Shown piece after piece: positions 2,652-34,809 of a DNA stretch of 38,228 bases. Source of the DNA: a virus. Position 1 is the stretch's first letter. Every line of letters begins with the position of its first letter. The stretch is taken from positions 1 to 38,228 of the IMG/VR virus record IMGVR_UViG_3300029206_000010; one strand, given 5' to 3'. The position numbers and the translations under genes were made by a program. The notes beneath the pieces were generated by a model. It made no database searches. It saw nothing but the letters and a program-made list of their open reading frames with translations, and had not been told where the DNA came from.

Positions 2652-2861
2652 ATGAATAGCACAGAGAGTAAAAAGGCATTCCGGCTGATGGCCGCTGAGC
2701 TGGCGATTGTGTCTGTGTTTGTCGTTGTAGCGGTCTTCTGCGCCGCTCGCGTGGGGATGTCTTTATCCTCGTGTCTGGTCTCGCTCGCGCTGGGTGCACT
2801 GCTCGGGGCTGGACTGGATGCCCTGCGCGGCAGACTGCGGAGGCGGCATGCTGACAGATAG
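2652..2861 (+). CDS. small membrane protein (two predicted TM helices)
   Basis: RBS ggaggg upstream of ATG; hydrophobic stretches AELAIVSVFVVVAVFCAA and LVSLALGALLGAGL. Confidence 0.5.
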   Translation: MNSTESKKAFRLMAAELAIVSVFVVVAVFCAARVGMSLSSCLVSLALGALLGAGLDALRGRLRRRHADR

Positions 2862-3195
2862 CCACCGTACATACGGATGGACGCCACACAGAGACGCCCT
2901 TCTTGCCCATCTGGTAGGCGCTGGCTACTCGTGGAGCGTGATAGGCACCTTATGCGGGCGCTCGAGGAAAGAGGCACAGCACAGGTGGAGCGTCCTTCAG
3001 AGTGAAGGCGTCGTGCCTGCCCTGAAGAAGCGGAGAAAAGCCAGGATACGATGGACGCAGAAGATGGATACCCTGCTTGTCTCTCTGAGACAGGAGGGTG
3101 CCCCATGGGCGGAGATAGCCGTCCGCCTAGGTATCAGTCTTTACGCGGCATGGAGCCGCGGACAAAAAATTGAACAAAAGGAGATAAAAATATGA
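2848..3195 (+). CDS. DNA-binding protein with two tandem Myb/SANT-like (GcrA-like) HTH repeats
   Basis: Repeats WTPHRDALLAHLVGAGYSWSVIGTLCGRSRKEAQHRW and WTQKMDTLLVSLRQEGAPWAEIAVRLGIS; start uncertain (2794 or ATG 2848 with GGAGG). Confidence 0.6.
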   Translation: MLTDSHRTYGWTPHRDALLAHLVGAGYSWSVIGTLCGRSRKEAQHRWSVLQSEGVVPALKKRRKARIRWTQKMDTLLVSLRQEGAPWAEIAVRLGISLYAAWSRGQKIEQKEIKI

Positions 3196-3542
3196 CCAGG
3201 AAAGAGTGCCTCGACGCAGCCGGCAAGGCCGTACTGACAGATCGGGCCCGTGAATACGGGCACCCCGAAGATAGTTTCGCCCTTATCGCGGCCCTGTGGA
3301 GCCGCTACACCGGGTGCGACATCTCCACCGCGGATGTGGCCGCCATGATGATCCTCCTGAAGCTCGCCCGCGTGGAGGGGAATCCCCGGCACACAGACAG
3401 TTGGGTGGACATTGCCGGATACGCGGCCTGCGGTGCTGAGTGTGCTGCCGCTATGTCCGGATGCGAGCGCGTTGGCGGTGTGGACTATGCCCCGGGGCGT
3501 ATAGCCCCGAAGACGGGCCGGGAGGATGGCAATGAGCTGTAA
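3192..3542 (+). CDS. conserved phage protein resembling the DUF6378-type family
   Basis: MTRKECLDAAGKAVLTDRAREYGHPEDSFALIAALWS...DVAAMMILLKLARVEGNPRHTDSWVDIAGYAACGAE; strong RBS aggagataaaaat. Confidence 0.6.
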   Translation: MTRKECLDAAGKAVLTDRAREYGHPEDSFALIAALWSRYTGCDISTADVAAMMILLKLARVEGNPRHTDSWVDIAGYAACGAECAAAMSGCERVGGVDYAPGRIAPKTGREDGNEL

Positions 3543-3825
3543 TGTTATCACTTTTGTCACCCCTGCTGGTAAGCTGGGGTCAAGGGAACTCGATGTCCCA
3601 TTGTTGATGAAGCTGGCCGACCGCGTGAAGGCCGCGGAGAAGAAGCATCCGGCCTTCTCCGACGGCATATATCAGGGCGTAGGCGTCATAGGTGAAGAGT
3701 ACGGGGAACTCTGCCAGGCTCTGAATAAGTCGCAGGGGGAAGAGCGCGTCATGGATGAGGCGCTGGACCTGCTCTGTGTCGTCTGGCGCTTCTGCCGCGG
3801 GGACTGGAGGAAGGAAAAGTGCTAA
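3532..3825 (+). CDS. MazG-like nucleotide pyrophosphohydrolase domain protein
   Basis: GVIGEEYGELCQAL and EALDLLCVV motifs typical of small phage MazG-like proteins; 3' 47 bp duplicated at 4787..4833. Confidence 0.5.
   Translation: MSCNVITFVTPAGKLGSRELDVPLLMKLADRVKAAEKKHPAFSDGIYQGVGVIGEEYGELCQALNKSQGEERVMDEALDLLCVVWRFCRGDWRKEKC
3769..3815 (+). repeat. copy A of a 47-bp imperfect direct repeat (about 88% identity) flanking the methyltransferase insertion
   Basis: ctggacctgctctgtgtcgtctggcgcttctgccgcggggactggag vs copy B at 4787..4833. Confidence 0.75.
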
Positions 3826-4640
3826 TGGCTCTCATCTACCCCGGTGGGAAAGTGAAAATCTCCTCATGGGTTATTTCATTTTTTCCACGGCATAAAATAT
3901 ACGTTGAGCCTTTCGGCGGCGCCGCTGGCGTTCTTCTGAACAAGACGCCCTCGCCGCTGGAAGTGTATAACGACCTGAACAGCGATTTAGTCAACTTTTT
4001 CAGTGTGTTGCGCGATAAATCGAAAGCCGCGGAGCTTATCCGGCGGCTGAAGCTGACGCCTTACGCAAGGGAAGAGTACTATAGCTTCTACCCTATGCCT
4101 GATGGTGACGATATAGAGAGGGCGCGCGCTCTGGTGTGCCGGGCGGGTATGGGGATTGGGATACGTGGTGCGGTGTCTGAAAGCCGGCAAGGTTTCGCAG
4201 CCGACAACCAAAGAATCAAAAAATACGCAAAAACTTTTGTTAACCGCGTAGAAAAAATGGAAGAAATAGCAGAGCGTTTACGCTCCGTGGTCATCGAGCA
4301 CAAAGACGCGCTGGAGCTTATCCCGCGCTACGACTCCCCCGATACGCTATGGTATCTGGACCCGCCGTATAACTGCGGATATACCTTCAGATACAGAGCT
4401 GACGTTGATCAGAAGGCCATGCTCGGTGCTTTTAAAAATGTCAGCGGGTATGTCGTGCTGTCTGGATACGAGAACGCGCTGTACGCTGATGAGCTGGCCG
4501 ATTGGCATATGGAGACGCGCCCGCATCATAATTTCGCTAATCAGGAAACAAAAGAATGCCTCTGGCTGTCCCCGCGCACGTGGGATGCGCTTCAGCGTGA
4601 GCGTGATCCCGGGGTGCTGAGACTGGATGACGTGTCATGA
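3819..4640 (+). CDS. Dam-family (D12 class) DNA N6-adenine methyltransferase, orphan
   Basis: EPFGGAAGV (FxGxG SAM motif) and DPPY catalytic motif; 273 aa; no adjacent restriction endonuclease. Confidence 0.85.
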   Translation: MLMALIYPGGKVKISSWVISFFPRHKIYVEPFGGAAGVLLNKTPSPLEVYNDLNSDLVNFFSVLRDKSKAAELIRRLKLTPYAREEYYSFYPMPDGDDIERARALVCRAGMGIGIRGAVSESRQGFAADNQRIKKYAKTFVNRVEKMEEIAERLRSVVIEHKDALELIPRYDSPDTLWYLDPPYNCGYTFRYRADVDQKAMLGAFKNVSGYVVLSGYENALYADELADWHMETRPHHNFANQETKECLWLSPRTWDALQRERDPGVLRLDDVS

Positions 4641-4786
4641 TCCTTTCGTCCGTCAAGGCGGCCTGCGTCTTTTTTTCTTGCGGCTATCCTCTGGCCGGTA
4701 TATATTGTATATCACGCAATCACTCTTGATTTGTTTTGTTGCGGTAGTGGAGGTGTTGGGTATGATTAGCGCTTTGATGGGGCTTG

Positions 4787-4833
4787 ACCTTCTTTGTGTC
4801 GTGTGGCGTTTCTGCCGCGGGGACTGGAGATGA
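4787..4833 (+). repeat. copy B of the 47-bp direct repeat (duplicated 3' end of MazG-like gene)
   Basis: cttgaccttctttgtgtcgtgtggcgtttctgccgcggggactggag; encodes LDLLCVVWRFCRGDWR as does copy A. Confidence 0.75.
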
Positions 4834-4955
4834 TAGATACACTGATAGATATCTTCATCGTCGCGATGAAGATCTTCATCCCGATATGGATAGTGCTTTT
4901 TATTGCGACAGAGTGGGCCGATGATACAGAGAGGCAGCGCTGGCGCGACAGATGA
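4830..4955 (+). CDS. possible 41-aa hydrophobic peptide (MIDTLIDIFIVAMKIFIPIWIVLFIATEW...)
   Basis: Short ORF starting right after repeat copy B; below the 60-aa track cutoff; no RBS seen. Confidence 0.25.
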   Translation: MIDTLIDIFIVAMKIFIPIWIVLFIATEWADDTERQRWRDR

Positions 4956-5092
4956 TGCACTCGTGCCCCTACTGCGGGTGCCCCGACATCTACCTTGCCG
5001 ACACAGACGGGGGCGGCCGCACTGTCGCCTGCCCCTTCTGTTGCAATGGTAAGCAAAAATCAGCCTACGGCTATTGCTGGGGCTATGCGTAA
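4952..5092 (+). CDS. possible 46-aa zinc-ribbon protein (CPYCGCP...CPFCC)
   Basis: MMHSCPYCGCPDIYLADTDGGGRTVACPFCCNGK; overlaps previous peptide stop (ATGATG). Confidence 0.3.
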   Translation: MMHSCPYCGCPDIYLADTDGGGRTVACPFCCNGKQKSAYGYCWGYA

Positions 5093-5303
5093 CCAACGCA
5101 AAAAGGTGGTGATATGTATGAAGTCTAAGGCAAAAGACAAGACGGCGAAACTCTGCGGTGCGGGCGTTCCCTTCCAGAGGATTCGCCGCATTTGACGTCA
5201 CGGGCTATCTTGTCGGCACGCTGGACCGCTTCAACGACGCGAAGCGCGCGGAAGAAGCGGACCGCGTTAAGCACGGTATGGGCAAGTCTGGAAGGCAGGG
5301 GCA

Positions 5304-6083
5304 ATGAGCTACAGCAGGGTAATCCGGGAAGGCCTCTATACGGCCCCGACGTTCAACCTTGGCGGAGACTGTATTCAGGTCTGGGGAAGTGACGGCGGCA
5401 CTCTCATCCAGGACTGCATCTTCGACCTCTCCGCCGTCCCGCTCGCTGACCAGGATGAAGCTATCGACTGCATCAAGGGCGCCCATGTGGTCATCGACCG
5501 CTGCGTCTTCATCGGCTGCAAGAAAGCCATCCTTGGGGGCAACGGGGACTACCCGGCAGAAGACAAGTCAGGGCTTCTCTTTCTCAAAAACTGCGCCTTC
5601 ATCAGGTGCGGGAGAAGGTGTCCCGAGGTGCAGGACGGCGTTATCGCCGATATGAGCCAGTGCTGGGTGCACGACTGGGGCGTGGGATGTTTTGATGTCC
5701 GCACCTTCGGCGCATGGGCCCATCACAGCGCCTGCCTGACTGCCACAAATTGTGTGTTCTCGCGTTCTCACAGTCTTTCCCGCAAAGACTGGATCGTGGA
5801 TCACCTCAATCACCTGGGCGAAGCCTACAACGATGGCGGCATCAGAGATATCTTCTCCCGCCCCTCATGGGTGAGCGGGCAGAGGAGGGGGATAGACTTC
5901 ACTGGATACGGCGCCGGCGGAAGCAGCGGATGCCGGTTCGTCAATTGTCTGCAGATAGGCGGCGGACAGGAGAGCGAGGGTAATCCGTCCCTGGAATGGC
6001 TGAGAGATCTCCCTGACACGTCGCATACGTCTCTGGGGATGGCGCTCTGGGAGTATGTCAAGAAGGAGCTGAGTCTTGAGTGA
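5304..6083 (+). CDS. right-handed parallel beta-helix repeat protein (pectin-lyase fold), function unknown
   Basis: Repeating Cys-containing turns (IQDCIF, IDRCVFIGC, LKNCAFIRC, ATNCVFSRS); RBS ggaaggcagggg; 259 aa. Confidence 0.6.
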   Translation: MSYSRVIREGLYTAPTFNLGGDCIQVWGSDGGTLIQDCIFDLSAVPLADQDEAIDCIKGAHVVIDRCVFIGCKKAILGGNGDYPAEDKSGLLFLKNCAFIRCGRRCPEVQDGVIADMSQCWVHDWGVGCFDVRTFGAWAHHSACLTATNCVFSRSHSLSRKDWIVDHLNHLGEAYNDGGIRDIFSRPSWVSGQRRGIDFTGYGAGGSSGCRFVNCLQIGGGQESEGNPSLEWLRDLPDTSHTSLGMALWEYVKKELSLE

Positions 6084-28984: not shown

Positions 28985-29130
28985 CCTGCACCATAAGTTT
29001 GGTGCAGGATGTGTTGTAAGTCATTGAATTTTCACTAAATACGCGTTCCTGTCCCGGGACAGTATATTTAGCGCCTTATGCCCTGTTTTCAGTGGGTTAG
29101 CTTAAAAACCTGCACCATTCTGCACCAATC
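28985..29130. promoter_or_regulatory. attP-like region: palindrome cctgcacca-N6-tggtgcagg, two more direct CTGCACCA copies abutting int stop, and 14-bp palindrome ctgtcccgggacag
   Basis: Read directly; between terminator and integrase 3' end. Confidence 0.5.
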
Positions 29131-30154
29131 ATGAGGGGAGAGCGGGCAAATCCTGCGCGGCTCTCTCCTGAGCCCCCGCCACTGCGTGAGTGTAGAAGGC
29201 CCCGGTGGTGGTGATGTTTTTGTGTCCGAGCTGCGCGGCGACGGCGGCTATATCAGCTCCCGCCTCCAGCATCAGGCTGGCAGCCATGTGCCGGACGGTG
29301 TACATGGGGAACCGGGCAACGCCGGCTTTTTGGCAGGCTATATGCCAAAAGTATTTTATCGTGGAGTACGGCTTTCCGTGCGGGGACGGGCAGACAGGTT
29401 CTTCCGGATTCCTTCCCTGAGCTTTCTGTTTGGCCTCGTCCAGCCACCAGCGCGGACAGAAAACAACCTTCTGCCGGCGTGTCTTTGGCATCCAGACAGA
29501 CGCCCTGCCGTGCGCAAGGTCAATATCCCGCCATTTAAGGTTGATGACTTCCTTCCCCGGACGCAGGCACAGGGCAAGGCATGTGCGTATAGCCCACTGG
29601 AGCGCGGGAGCACACAAGGCGTATACTTTGCGGAAGTCGTCAAAACTTCCGCACCAATGGCTGTGTGGTCCCTCTGGCAGATGCCTGTACTTTTCCCACG
29701 GCACAGCTTCAAGGAAGTCTTCACTCGCACACCACCGCCATGCCGCAAGGAGTTTCTGCACGTGGCGATTAATTGAGTATGCCGAAAGATTCCATTCCTG
29801 CCGTAACACATCCCTGAAGTGTTCCAGGTCACGGCGTGTCAGACTGTCTACGTATCTTGAGGCCATACTGTCACCCATGCGCGACAGAACAAGCGCGTAG
29901 TAGCCTTCTGTGGTTCTGGCATGCTTCGTGCGCGACAGGAACAGAAGAATTGACTCCGCCACAGTGAGCCTGTTATTACTTCGCTCGTCATAGCTTTTTT
30001 CCTTTTGAAGGGCTTCCGCTTCCTCTCGGGTGCGGAAGCTCTTCTGTTTCCAGATATTGCCTTCCTTGAATTTGCAAACAAAACGGCCGTCGTTACGTTG
30101 ATAAACGCTCACGGAGTTTTCCTTCCCGGATGAGGGCCGCCGCATCAGACGCAC
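29129..30154 (-). CDS. int: tyrosine recombinase / phage integrase
   Basis: C-terminal catalytic region VRHMAASLMLEAGADIAAVAAQLGHKNITTTGAFYTH (R..H..R/H..Y); N-terminal SAM-like domain. Confidence 0.9.
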   Translation of the reverse strand: MRLMRRPSSGKENSVSVYQRNDGRFVCKFKEGNIWKQKSFRTREEAEALQKEKSYDERSNNRLTVAESILLFLSRTKHARTTEGYYALVLSRMGDSMASRYVDSLTRRDLEHFRDVLRQEWNLSAYSINRHVQKLLAAWRWCASEDFLEAVPWEKYRHLPEGPHSHWCGSFDDFRKVYALCAPALQWAIRTCLALCLRPGKEVINLKWRDIDLAHGRASVWMPKTRRQKVVFCPRWWLDEAKQKAQGRNPEEPVCPSPHGKPYSTIKYFWHIACQKAGVARFPMYTVRHMAASLMLEAGADIAAVAAQLGHKNITTTGAFYTHAVAGAQERAAQDLPALPS

Positions 30155-32922: not shown

Positions 32923-33975
32923 CTAATCCCACTGCGGGCATCCCTGCCGATGAGGGCAGTTCGGGCAGTCGAGAACGTCATCGACCATCTTGCCGCTATC
33001 CGGGCACTTAATCTTTTCCCCCGGGCCCTTGGCCTTGGCGGGCTGAGGCTCGGGCTCGGGCTTGGGTGCAGCCTTCTTGGCGGAAGTCTGCTCCGCTGCC
33101 TTCTCCGCGTGCTGTTCCGCGGGCTTTTCTTCAGCCTGTTCGGCCGTAGCCGGCTCTTCCTTCGCGGGCTCGTCGGCCTTCTTCTCCGCGGGCTGGGGCT
33201 CGTGCTCCAACATGGCGTTGATCGCATCCACAGTAGCCGCGGGAGTGGGCTTCTTCTCCTCCACGACTTCAGCGGTGGTTGTCTGGGCTTCTTCCGCGGC
33301 GAAGGCGTCGGCGACCTTGGTCACGGGGAGCCATGCAGAGAGACGCTTGATGGCCGTCTTAATGGCCATGGCTGCGTAGTGGTCCCGCCATGCAGGCGAG
33401 TTGCCGCGGTTCAGCGCCCGCGCCTGATCAATCTCCATCTTGGTGACGAGGCGGACAATGGGCTCTCCAGTCTTGAGCACCACGGCCGCGTAGGCCGCTA
33501 TCACATCCTCGGGCTTGCCGGTGCGGGCCTCCGGATTGAGAAGGTCGATCTTATGGATGATTCGGGGAGATATGCCGCTCTCGTATTCAAAGAGTCCCTG
33601 CTCGACTTCCTGTCTGTACACCACATCCGCGTTGAAGGATGCTATAGCCCCGCTCCGGTACATCAGCTGCATGAGGCCCTTGTATCCAACCTGAAACTGG
33701 CATTCGCGGTTGTAGGGGATGAGGTAAGCCAAGCCCTGCGGGGTGTTCGGCTCCAGATTAAGCTGCGCGCAGGTCATCATGGCTCCGAGGATGGAGGCCG
33801 GTTCACACTGGGCGAGCTTCGGGGTCTGGCGCATAGCCGTGAGGCAGATTCTCGTAAAGCGCTCGGCTCTCTCCTGCCTCTGGGCCGGAGTGCTGCCTCC
33901 GATGGCGAGGGCGAACTGGGGCTTGGACCTCATGATGAGGTCGGGGAGGTTGTTGAAATTGTTTATCGTAGTCAT
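32923..33975 (-). CDS. recT: RecT-family single-strand annealing recombinase with C-terminal low-complexity linker and CxxC..CxxC zinc ribbon
   Basis: RecT core (FALAIGGSTPAQRQER..TPKLAQCEPASILGAMMTCAQLNLEPN..GLAYLIPY..VGYKGLMQL); C-terminal EEKPAEQ-rich tail ending CPDSGKMVDDVLDCPNCPHRQGCPQW. Confidence 0.85.
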   Translation of the reverse strand: MTTINNFNNLPDLIMRSKPQFALAIGGSTPAQRQERAERFTRICLTAMRQTPKLAQCEPASILGAMMTCAQLNLEPNTPQGLAYLIPYNRECQFQVGYKGLMQLMYRSGAIASFNADVVYRQEVEQGLFEYESGISPRIIHKIDLLNPEARTGKPEDVIAAYAAVVLKTGEPIVRLVTKMEIDQARALNRGNSPAWRDHYAAMAIKTAIKRLSAWLPVTKVADAFAAEEAQTTTAEVVEEKKPTPAATVDAINAMLEHEPQPAEKKADEPAKEEPATAEQAEEKPAEQHAEKAAEQTSAKKAAPKPEPEPQPAKAKGPGEKIKCPDSGKMVDDVLDCPNCPHRQGCPQWD

Positions 33976-33987
33976 ACGTTTTTCTCC

Positions 33988-34809
33988 TTATTTTGAGGCC
34001 TGATAGTAGGCCCACTCCGGCAGATCCACTTCGTAGATGCCGGACGTGTAGGCCGGCCAGGAATCGTCTTCGCGGCAGTGGATAAGCGTCCTTGCGGCCC
34101 GCATGCACTGGTCATCACCGAGGGCCAGCGCGTCGGCCGTAAAGGACAGCGGCGTCACGAGGTATGGCGCCTGCTTGGACACAAAGAAGAAGATGAATGG
34201 CGCCTCGATCCCGCACGCCTTCAGGCCGCGGGTGTACCATGCGGCCTGCCGGTGATACCCGAAGTTGTACGCCTTGCGGGCAAGCTCCGACGGCTTCACC
34301 GTGTCGGCCGTGGTTTTGAGGTCAATTGCGACCCAGGTTCCATCGGGAAGTTGCGCAAGGCGGTCGACACGCGCCTTGCAGGGAAGGGGCTTGTCCTCGA
34401 CGGTCTCTTCCCAGTAGAGGGACACTTCGCTTTTGCCGGGGAGAGCCAGAAGTTTTGACGTCGTCGGGCACGCGGTGAGGAGACTGTCGGACATGCTCTC
34501 GGCCTGGCTCCAGTCCTCTCCGGAGAAGGCCGTGATGCTTTTCTCTGCGAGGGCCTTGCGCTCCTCCTTGCCCGCCTTGGTGGTGCCGGGGTACTGGCAG
34601 ACTGCGTACCGCTCGGCCACCTTGTCCGGCTCGAGGACCATGGCATGCACGAGGGAGCCGAGAAGGAAGGCCTTGCTGGGCGCCTCCTCCATGGTCTGAT
34701 GAGCCTTGTAGAGCGCGGGACATTCCAGAAGGTAGCCGATGGAAGTGTTATTGAGAGCCTTTTCCGCGAAGTATTCCGCTGCCGGCTGATCATAGATAAT
34801 CTTGGCCAT
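33988..34809 (-). CDS. PD-(D/E)XK family nuclease (RecB/Cas4-like), probable exonuclease partner of RecT
   Basis: D..IDLKTT (D..K) and GYHRQAAWY (QxxxY) motifs; adjacent upstream of recT. Confidence 0.65.
   Translation of the reverse strand: MAKIIYDQPAAEYFAEKALNNTSIGYLLECPALYKAHQTMEEAPSKAFLLGSLVHAMVLEPDKVAERYAVCQYPGTTKAGKEERKALAEKSITAFSGEDWSQAESMSDSLLTACPTTSKLLALPGKSEVSLYWEETVEDKPLPCKARVDRLAQLPDGTWVAIDLKTTADTVKPSELARKAYNFGYHRQAAWYTRGLKACGIEAPFIFFFVSKQAPYLVTPLSFTADALALGDDQCMRAARTLIHCREDDSWPAYTSGIYEVDLPEWAYYQASK

Follow-up and report, generated by a model that had tools for sequence, protein, structure and literature searches.

Temperate phages of the lambdoid type exchange modules in a mosaic fashion. 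The exchange is driven by Rad52-like recombinases, among them RecT, which work efficiently with short homologous stretches and with sequences diverged by 12-22 % (De Paepe et al. 2014, PMC3945230). A phage moron is, in the Juhala/Hendrix definition, an independent transcription unit with its own promoter and terminator (Cumby et al. 2012, PMC3594210). Solitary phage methyltransferases of the D12 class (alpha group) include T4 Dam, the Dam-like genes of Stx and P1-type phages and the members of PHROG 56. Modular exchange at gene boundaries and an orphan alpha-group adenine methylase as cargo are both well known and are ordinary phage mosaicism. The locus described here lies in IMG/VR virus record IMGVR_UViG_3300029206_000010, a stretch of 38,228 nucleotides (nt) that is called the window below. 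A solitary D12-class N6-adenine DNA methyltransferase (methylase) gene is located in it between a MazG-like gene and a small zinc-ribbon gene, with one copy of a 51-nt direct repeat on each side. By comparison with related loci, the two copies were shown to be the 3' ends of two MazG-like alleles, which come from different parental phages and diverged inside functional genes. Unequal recombination between two related phages with different cargo appears to have stacked both cargoes in one hypervariable slot, a reading to which we give a probability of roughly 0.7.

The repeat search found one family of direct repeats at the locus, with copies spaced 1020 nt apart and identical at 45 of 51 positions (88 %) (Table 1). 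The chance of at least 45 matches in 51 at a single alignment is 7e-21, which for the whole window gives an expectation of about 5e-12 pairs of this quality. A preliminary description of this DNA had rightly reported direct repeats of about 88 % identity, but its coordinates (3769-3815 and 4787-4833) were 2 nt out of register and ran about 6 nt past the right boundary. Both copies end at ...GACTGGAG and then part, with GAAGGAAAAG versus ATGATAGATA. The same 16 residues, LDLLCVVWRFCRGDWR, are encoded in frame by both; the tail after copy 1 is KEKC-stop, closing the MazG-like open reading frame (ORF), and that after copy 2 is R-stop (TGA 4831-4833). Copy 2 does not contain the catalytic EXXE...EXXD region. 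All six differences in the 16 shared codons (3763-3810 versus 4783-4830) are synonymous, and every variant base at the six positions is found in natural alleles of the MazG-like gene. Copy 2 is nearer to the allele of one relative, L019, than to copy 1, and copy 1 is in turn nearer to the alleles of L005 and L138 than to copy 2.

Table 1 Features of the locus and of the recombination module (window coordinates unless stated otherwise; aa, amino acids; SD, Shine-Dalgarno sequence; TM, transmembrane)
Feature	Position	Strand	Basis
MazG-like gene, 99 aa, upstream anchor of the variable slot, ends ...LDLLCVVWRFCRGDWR-KEKC-stop	3526..3825	+	ORF; weak profile matches
Repeat copy 1, 3' end of the resident MazG-like allele	3759..3809	+	51/51 identical to the single copy in L138; 50/51 to L005/L006
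Leader of the downstream module, GAAGGAAAAGTGCTA	3810..3824	+	Identical in methylase-bearing L001/L002/L003/L008/L011; close variant in L019
Solitary D12-class N6-adenine DNA methyltransferase, 273 aa from GTG 3819 (271 aa from ATG 3825)	3819..4640	+	Pfam PF02086, PHROG 56, motifs
30-codon hydrophobic ORF, ATG overlapping the methylase stop (ATGA)	4637-4729	+	5' part in trailer
Trailer travelling with the methylase	4641..4696	+	Aligned to post-methylase DNA of L001/L003/L007/L008; L019
Spacer with SD GGAGGTG (4749-4755) and ATG 4762	4697..4778	+	No significant match outside the lineage
Chimeric 23-codon mini-ORF, MISALMG + LDLLCVVWRFCRGDWR, ending in ATGA overlap with the next gene	4762..4833	+	Read from the sequence
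Repeat copy 2, 3' fragment (last 17 codons) of a different MazG-like allele	4779..4829	+	45/51 identical to copy 1; 42/44 (95.5 %) to the L019 allele
41-aa hydrophobic (single-TM-like) gene, ATG overlapping the preceding stop (ATGA)	4830..4955	+	Homologues P0002-P0004
Small zinc-ribbon ORF, 46 aa, downstream anchor of the slot	4952..5092	+	First ~82 nt conserved in nearly all relatives
NrdD-like small gene	5097-5307 (ORFs 4995-5195, 5158-5307); L118 7345-7527; L120 7303-7458; L133 2395-2550		PF13597
Tyrosine integrase	29129-30154	-	Scan of lysogeny/recombination module ORFs
RecT-family single-strand annealing recombinase	32923..33975	-	Pfam PF03837 E 1e-43
PD-(D/E)XK exonuclease, RecT partner, adjoining recT	33988..34809	-	Pfam DUF3799 E 2e-24; PDDEXK_1 E 5.5e-7

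Empty sites were found in 14 relatives (L127-L138, L142 and L143). All of them lack the methylase and have a single copy of the 51-nt sequence, in the order DUF6378 gene, full-length MazG-like gene, ATGA overlap, 41-aa gene and zinc-ribbon gene. L127-L138 were found through homologues of the 41-aa protein, and L142 and L143 through a looser junction pattern in metagenomes; the lineage-specific junction pattern gave no match in metagenomes, and an exact-pattern scan of IMG/VR for the junction of copy 2 with the 41-aa gene gave none either. At each of the empty sites the single copy leads into a ATGATAGA(T/C)ACACTGAT junction, is the overlap of the upstream and downstream alignments of the window, and has the ATG of the 41-aa gene abutting GGAG without a spacer. 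The recombination scar and the one-copy empty sites that the preliminary description had predicted are thus present, and the GDWR-stop, which it had taken to be kept in its original form by the second copy, is part of the native GDWR-stop/ATGA junction in all 14.

The most informative empty site is that of L138, of which nt 1-199 are identical to window positions 3611-3809 (199/199). The copy in L138 is copy 1 (51/51) and runs directly into ATGATAGATACACTGATAGAT..., i.e. window position 4830 onward. Outside the repeat, L138 differs from the filled genome L119 by one mismatch in ~1.7 kb (at least 99.8 % identity) and by a 21-nt in-frame deletion. Because the differences between the copies are synonymous only, and because the copies are 12 % diverged compared to at most 0.2 % in the L138/L119 flanks, an allelic origin of the copies is indicated. 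The earlier view of a duplication that diverged afterwards does not fit these values.

The methylase also occurs without the second copy. In L001, L002, L003, L007 and L008 it is found (82-87 % identical as protein) directly after the MazG-like gene with the same leader, followed by the conserved trailer, an ORF of about 95 aa with multiple TM segments (multi-TM) and the zinc-ribbon gene. Neither tblastn nor short-word blastn detected a second repeat copy in these five relatives, which have the upstream copy only. As their methylase and its place match those of the window, the repeats do not belong to a methylase cassette, contrary to what had been proposed, and the arrangement comes near to what the preliminary description had itself said would speak against it. 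L011, whose contig breaks off within the gene, carries the methylase as well. In L030 and L032 the slot is occupied by two small genes and, after them, a methylase of 51 % identity, and in L019 leader and trailer are present and the methylase ORF is absent.

The MazG-like label is weak, with matches to Pfam PRA-PH at E 0.006 (below cutoff) and to the MazG-like PHROG 1247 at E 5e-4, and with an EXXE...EXXD motif that was spotted by eye. A PDB sequence search with the protein found no relative, and a search of genome contigs gave only three weak, irrelevant matches. The homologues in L001-L032 and L127-L143 always come after the DUF6378 gene. The KEKC tail and the stop of the ORF come from the leader, which together with the GGAG closing copy 1 (3806-3809) forms an SD-like run, GGAGGAAGG. 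The tail after GDW(R) tracks the next module, being KEKC with the methylase, QGK in L019, EKSRQE in L004/L010 and TKN in L013. As it differs with each following module, KEKC represents read-through into the downstream module and not an extension added later to the first copy, as had been suggested.

Other states of the slot were seen among the relatives. Two tandem MazG-like genes are present in L014, L015, L021 and L027, a full MazG-like gene with an additional 3' fragment in L018 and L022, and duplicated 5' fragments of the zinc-ribbon gene in L014, L022 and L024. These recurring scars of both anchors indicate that the slot is a recombination hot spot bounded by two conserved anchors. The second MazG-like gene of L014 (5007-5569), L021 and L027 is diverged, about 57-65 % identical to that of the window, and is followed by a 125-aa gene. 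In other relatives DUF4406-annotated genes occur elsewhere in this region.

The proposed course of events starts from a hypervariable cargo slot between the MazG-like and zinc-ribbon genes, in which different modules are each joined directly after ...GACTGGAG. The conserved end of the MazG-like gene would double as ribosome-binding region and coupling point for the next gene. Parent A would have had the order MazG-like gene, methylase, trailer and multi-TM gene, and in parent B the 41-aa gene would have followed the MazG-like gene directly, through an ATGA overlap. On the right, the junction would connect a point ~100-140 nt past the methylase (parent A) to a point 51 nt before the MazG-like end (parent B). 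In the recombinant both cargoes would be kept, the multi-TM gene would be truncated, and the last 17 MazG-like codons of parent B would remain as the direct repeat. This fragment was probably retained because it supplies the 41-aa gene with the SD-like GGGGA (-11 to -7) and with the ATGA context for termination and reinitiation; the new SD and ATG upstream of it would open the 23-codon ORF that runs through copy 2. The longest identical run shared by the copies is 20 nt, the block TTCTGCCGCGGGGACTGGAG; a crossover in this block would remove or add the 1020-nt segment and would give exactly the methylase-less sequence of L138. With regard to the action of RecT-type enzymes on short diverged homology (PMC3945230), the RecT/exonuclease pair of the phage itself is the likely catalyst of the exchanges.

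The locus resembles lambdoid-type mosaicism in its conserved anchors around a variable slot, junctions exactly at gene ends, phage-encoded RecT and exonuclease, exchange stretches of ~88 % identity, and scars and partial duplicates of anchor genes in several relatives. It differs in that two cargoes were stacked by an unequal exchange, with a 51-nt direct repeat as its trace, that the part of RecT is here a proposed one, and that the reciprocal empty form was sampled in the phage species of the window itself.

Several points weigh against unequal recombination of two parental phages. None of the relatives combines a full-length MazG-like gene ending in a copy-2-type sequence with the 41-aa gene behind it, and neither parent was sampled exactly. 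Outside the lineage the closest methylase allele is ~86 % identical (protein), and the spacer has no significant homologue. The similarity of positions 4748-4770 to a gene start in L001 (see below), with z ~2, is suggestive and does not fix where the illegitimate junction lies on its left side. L138 could be either a deletion derivative or the ancestral empty form, as the same exchange would act in opposite directions. L138 is a single 1.9-kb contig; an assembly graph with k=31 cannot have fused the copies in it, since these share only 20 identical bases in a row. The order of events, the involvement of RecT, the translational coupling and the activity, role and target of the methylase are inferred. 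Finally, GATC is rarer than expected in the whole window (84 observed versus 137 expected, ratio 0.61); CTAG is likewise under-represented (ratio 0.33), and other 4-nt palindromes are near expectation. The scarcity of GATC gives no support to a GATC-protecting Dam and no information on the target of the methylase.

An ancestor with two tandem MazG-like paralogues could also have produced the repeat, if a methylase cassette replaced most of the second gene and left its last 17 codons as a remnant, i.e. copy 2. The tandem genes and the gene-plus-fragment arrangements described above are in line with such an origin, which we nevertheless consider unlikely. In the tandem relatives the end of the second gene is more diverged, e.g. 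39/51 in L027, where it encodes ...CVAWLFYRGDW, and it is the 125-aa gene and not the 41-aa gene that follows. The 41-aa gene comes after a single full-length MazG-like gene in 14/14 empty-site loci, and no trace of a second gene was seen in five methylase-bearing relatives. The insertion might instead have duplicated 51 nt of its target, as a long target-site duplication or by a replication template switch, and the copies might then have drifted to 88 % identity. Direct repeats that exactly flank the extra DNA, and empty sites with one copy, are what such an event would leave. However, the synonymous nature of 6/6 differences in shared codons speaks for divergence inside functional genes rather than for a decaying scar, there is 1 mismatch in ~1.7 kb of the L138/L119 flanks compared to 6/51 between the copies, and relatives have the same methylase without the second copy. 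No transposase or integrase gene was seen adjoining the slot, no terminal inverted repeats were found in 3000-5800 and no transposase was seen in the insert. In contrast to transposon or integrase insertions with target-site duplication, the copies are 51 nt long and 12 % diverged, with synonymous changes only and without terminal inverted repeats, and a duplicated target is thus quite improbable.

It is very improbable, too, that the repeats are dedicated sites of an integron-like or otherwise site-specific cassette system inserting and excising the methylase. The use of one boundary (GACTGGAG) by many different modules, the filled/empty polymorphism inside one phage species and a 9-10-nt sequence, GACTGGAGG(A), flanking the methylase ORF in L001/L003/L007/L008 would agree with a system of this kind. 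The conservation of the boundary is, however, explained by coding constraint and by its ribosome-binding role for the downstream gene; no recombinase gene was seen adjoining the slot, no inverted repeat, stable structure or other RNA structure signal was detected across 4630-4840 (z -0.01), and other methylase-bearing relatives have no second site. Nothing was found in favour of an assembly artefact, the chance of which is practically negligible. The two copies with the same six mismatches are present in 11 independent assemblies from different studies and assemblers (L116-L126, from ENA and Logan, in which the encoded methylase or MazG-like protein is identical). The duplication is therefore genuine, and the 20-nt longest identical run is shorter than usual assembly k-mers. 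A more far-reaching proposal, which we regard as unlikely, is that the MazG-like end (...TTCTGCCGCGGGGACTGGAG) serves as a docking site where the RecT system captures, stacks and sheds cargo time and again. The methylase would then be a reversible cassette, and the methylase-plus and methylase-minus genomes (L118/L119 versus L138) would be a bet-hedging polymorphism directed at hosts whose restriction is either methylation-sensitive or methylation-dependent.

The methylase itself was confirmed as a D12-class N6-adenine enzyme. Residues 7-189 matched positions 1-191 of the 253 in the PF02086 profile with 66.6 bits (cutoff 22, E 3.7e-18), and PHROG 56 'DNA methyltransferase' was matched at E 4e-57. 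The S-adenosylmethionine (AdoMet)-binding motif I, FGGAAG, is at residue 32 and the catalytic motif IV, DPPY, at residue 181 of 273, which is the order of the alpha group. The DPPY and FxGxG motifs named in the preliminary description therefore stand, but its assignment to the Dam family with a GATC-like target is not supported. The Dam family proper, TIGR00571, comprises GATC-specific enzymes such as E. coli Dam, T4 Dam and DpnM. The methylase scored 54.3 bits with this model, compared to a curated cutoff of 114.85, and residues 3-86 alone aligned; with the E. coli Dam equivalog model NF008152 the score was 26 against a cutoff of 441. Relatives in PDB include E. coli Dam, DpnM and others (E 2e-7 to 1e-5), and the stretch that aligns to the DNA-recognition hairpin of E. 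coli Dam is not conserved, as read by eye from the alignment. The enzyme thus differs from those of the T4 Dam type in its score, in the alignment of its N-terminal AdoMet-binding part only and in the recognition-hairpin region. A label such as 'Dam-like superfamily' would be fair, whereas GATC specificity is unsupported because the score is below the curated Dam cutoff. In isolated phages (Meiothermus, Hafnia and Pseudomonas phages) the closest homologues are ~42 % identical.

In common with other solitary phage methyltransferases of the D12 class, the enzyme has the PF02086 domain with FxGxG before DPPY, is encoded at the end of the early/replication region and is solitary among the scanned ORFs, as had been noted earlier. 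Neither a restriction enzyme nor a second methylase was detected in the ORFs around it (DUF6378 gene, MazG-like gene, small membrane and zinc-ribbon ORFs and a beta-helix protein), the ten ORFs of the lysogeny/recombination module, or the Pfam-annotated gene calls up to 6 kb on either side in near-identical relatives, a scan that left most structural-module ORFs outside. Most likely the methylase methylates the phage DNA, which would thereby escape host restriction.

Like a moron, the methylase is present or absent among relatives, is placed between genes that adjoin elsewhere (the 14 empty-site loci), and has a lower G+C content at third codon positions (59 %) than the adjoining genes (72-76 %). 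This part of the original moron label holds; a promoter and terminator of its own are not supported. The start codon overlaps the stop of the MazG-like gene, and the GTG start is kept in relatives without the ATG. No sigma-70-like promoter was found upstream of the gene with the sigma-70 consensus, which may not be that of the host; the sole promoter-like match of the consensus scan lies inside the methylase gene, and matches occurred at background frequency. The terminator-like hairpins that follow (4655-4671 and 4681-4697) are weak, and their frequency does not exceed background either. With its start overlapping the upstream stop and no promoter-like site before it, the methylase is not a strict moron. 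Judged by this layout, it is cargo embedded in an operon and does not form a transcription unit of its own, and this solitary alpha-group enzyme would be co-transcribed and translationally overlapped with the early operon.

The direct repeat GACTGGAGG(A), 9-10 nt long, is located at both ends of the methylase ORF in L001 (1190-1199 and 1995-2004), L003, L007 and L008, and the window has counterparts at 3802-3809 and 4623-4630 (7/8 nt). Together with the leader and trailer of L019, this repeat suggests that the methylase ORF itself may have entered between leader and trailer by microhomology.

The stretch of ~150 bp between methylase and copy 2 had been described as noncoding. It does, however, hold the conserved trailer, and an SD and ATG (4749-4764) opening the 23-codon ORF, and probably has functional parts. 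The homology of the trailer was supported by z 4.9 against the post-methylase DNA of L007 and by z 17 against the L019 DNA directly after the MazG-like gene, and the trailer holds a weak terminator-like hairpin with a T run (4655-4680). The first 13 residues of the 30-codon ORF (MILSSVKAACVFF) are 11/13 identical to an ORF of L019 that starts at a GTG directly after the MazG-like gene, and similar ORFs come after the methylase in L001 and L007. The 30-codon ORF could be a real micro-gene or merely conserved trailer DNA. For the spacer no significant match was found in 143 loci. Positions 4748-4770 (TGGAGGTGTT..ATGATTAGC) are identical in 19/22 positions, and colinear (z ~2), to the ribosome-binding site and start of the multi-TM gene of L001, and may correspond to those of the multi-TM gene that follows the methylase in L001-type phages. 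Downstream, the 23-codon mini-ORF would act as a coupling leader for the 41-aa gene. Two other interpretations of this stretch were rejected: a decayed MazG-like gene at 4641-4778 (local alignments to seven MazG-like genes were no better than those to shuffles), and a 68-aa ORF at 4627-4833 given by some pipelines, which is regarded as spurious upstream of ATG 4762, as it is not conserved, the relatives having other frames and other sequence there.

IMG/VR queries with the 41-aa and a 53-aa ORF found no relative. The 21-nt deletion of L138 (at ~220; window 4844-4880) shortens the 41-aa gene to 34 aa, lies between the imperfect 16-nt repeats GATAGATATCTTCATC and GATGAAGATCTTCATC and looks like a slippage deletion. 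The zinc-ribbon ORF has a mosaic junction at ~5036-5040, and its product has 46 aa in the window compared to 80-92 aa in relatives (weak Lar_restr_allev match). Window positions 5041-5196 are replaced by ~200 nt of other sequence in the near-identical L118, L119 and L121, which indicates a second mosaic junction just downstream of the slot (~5036-5040 / 5197). A small gene further downstream encodes a 51-60-aa protein that matches the C-terminal part of the anaerobic ribonucleotide reductase NrdD (PF13597; ...RRITGYLVGTLDRFNDAKRAEE.DRVKH). The matching sequence resembles the glycyl-radical motif of NrdD, and the protein would be a stand-alone glycyl-radical 'spare part'; the ORF is interrupted in both the window and L129 by a 7-nt insertion with a stop, ATTTGAC.

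The window is a phage genome of roughly 38 kb of human-gut metagenome origin, and contigs of 38,182-38,291 nt recur in other assemblies. The phage is temperate, as it encodes a tyrosine integrase, and has its own single-strand-annealing recombination system; integrase, RecT and PD-(D/E)XK exonuclease were the ones matched among the ten ORFs scanned in the lysogeny/recombination module, the remaining ORFs being without a match. An S24 repressor is present in the gene tables of near-identical relatives, where the gene order is S24 repressor, DnaC-like loader, SSB, VRR-NUC nuclease, DUF6378, MazG-like, variable slot, and lysis and packaging genes. Positions 3000-5400 had no megablast match among isolated phages or complete E. 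coli genomes, the closest terminases among isolated phages are at most 44 % identical, and the window contains no tRNA genes. In L137 the gene of a C5 cytosine DNA methylase (PF00145) at 4609-5676 separates the DUF6378 gene from the MazG-like gene, and PAPS-reductase-like and Csf3-like genes lie upstream of it (2677-4124). The presence of this second type of methylase indicates that the neighbourhood repeatedly collects DNA-modification cargo.

The locus adds no new mechanism or enzyme class. What is unusual is the completeness of the natural series: two parental arrangement types, a recombinant with a readable scar, and the reciprocal allele in one phage species. It provides a clean natural example, from human-gut metagenomes, of how a phage cargo slot evolves. 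An accessory gene can be flanked by direct repeats that are not the footprint of its insertion, the repeat being here the end of the allele of another phage; synonymous-only divergence between the copies offers a simple test for separating an insertion footprint from the end of a foreign allele. The presence or absence of the methylase is a polymorphism within one phage species, which metagenomic methylome data could exploit.

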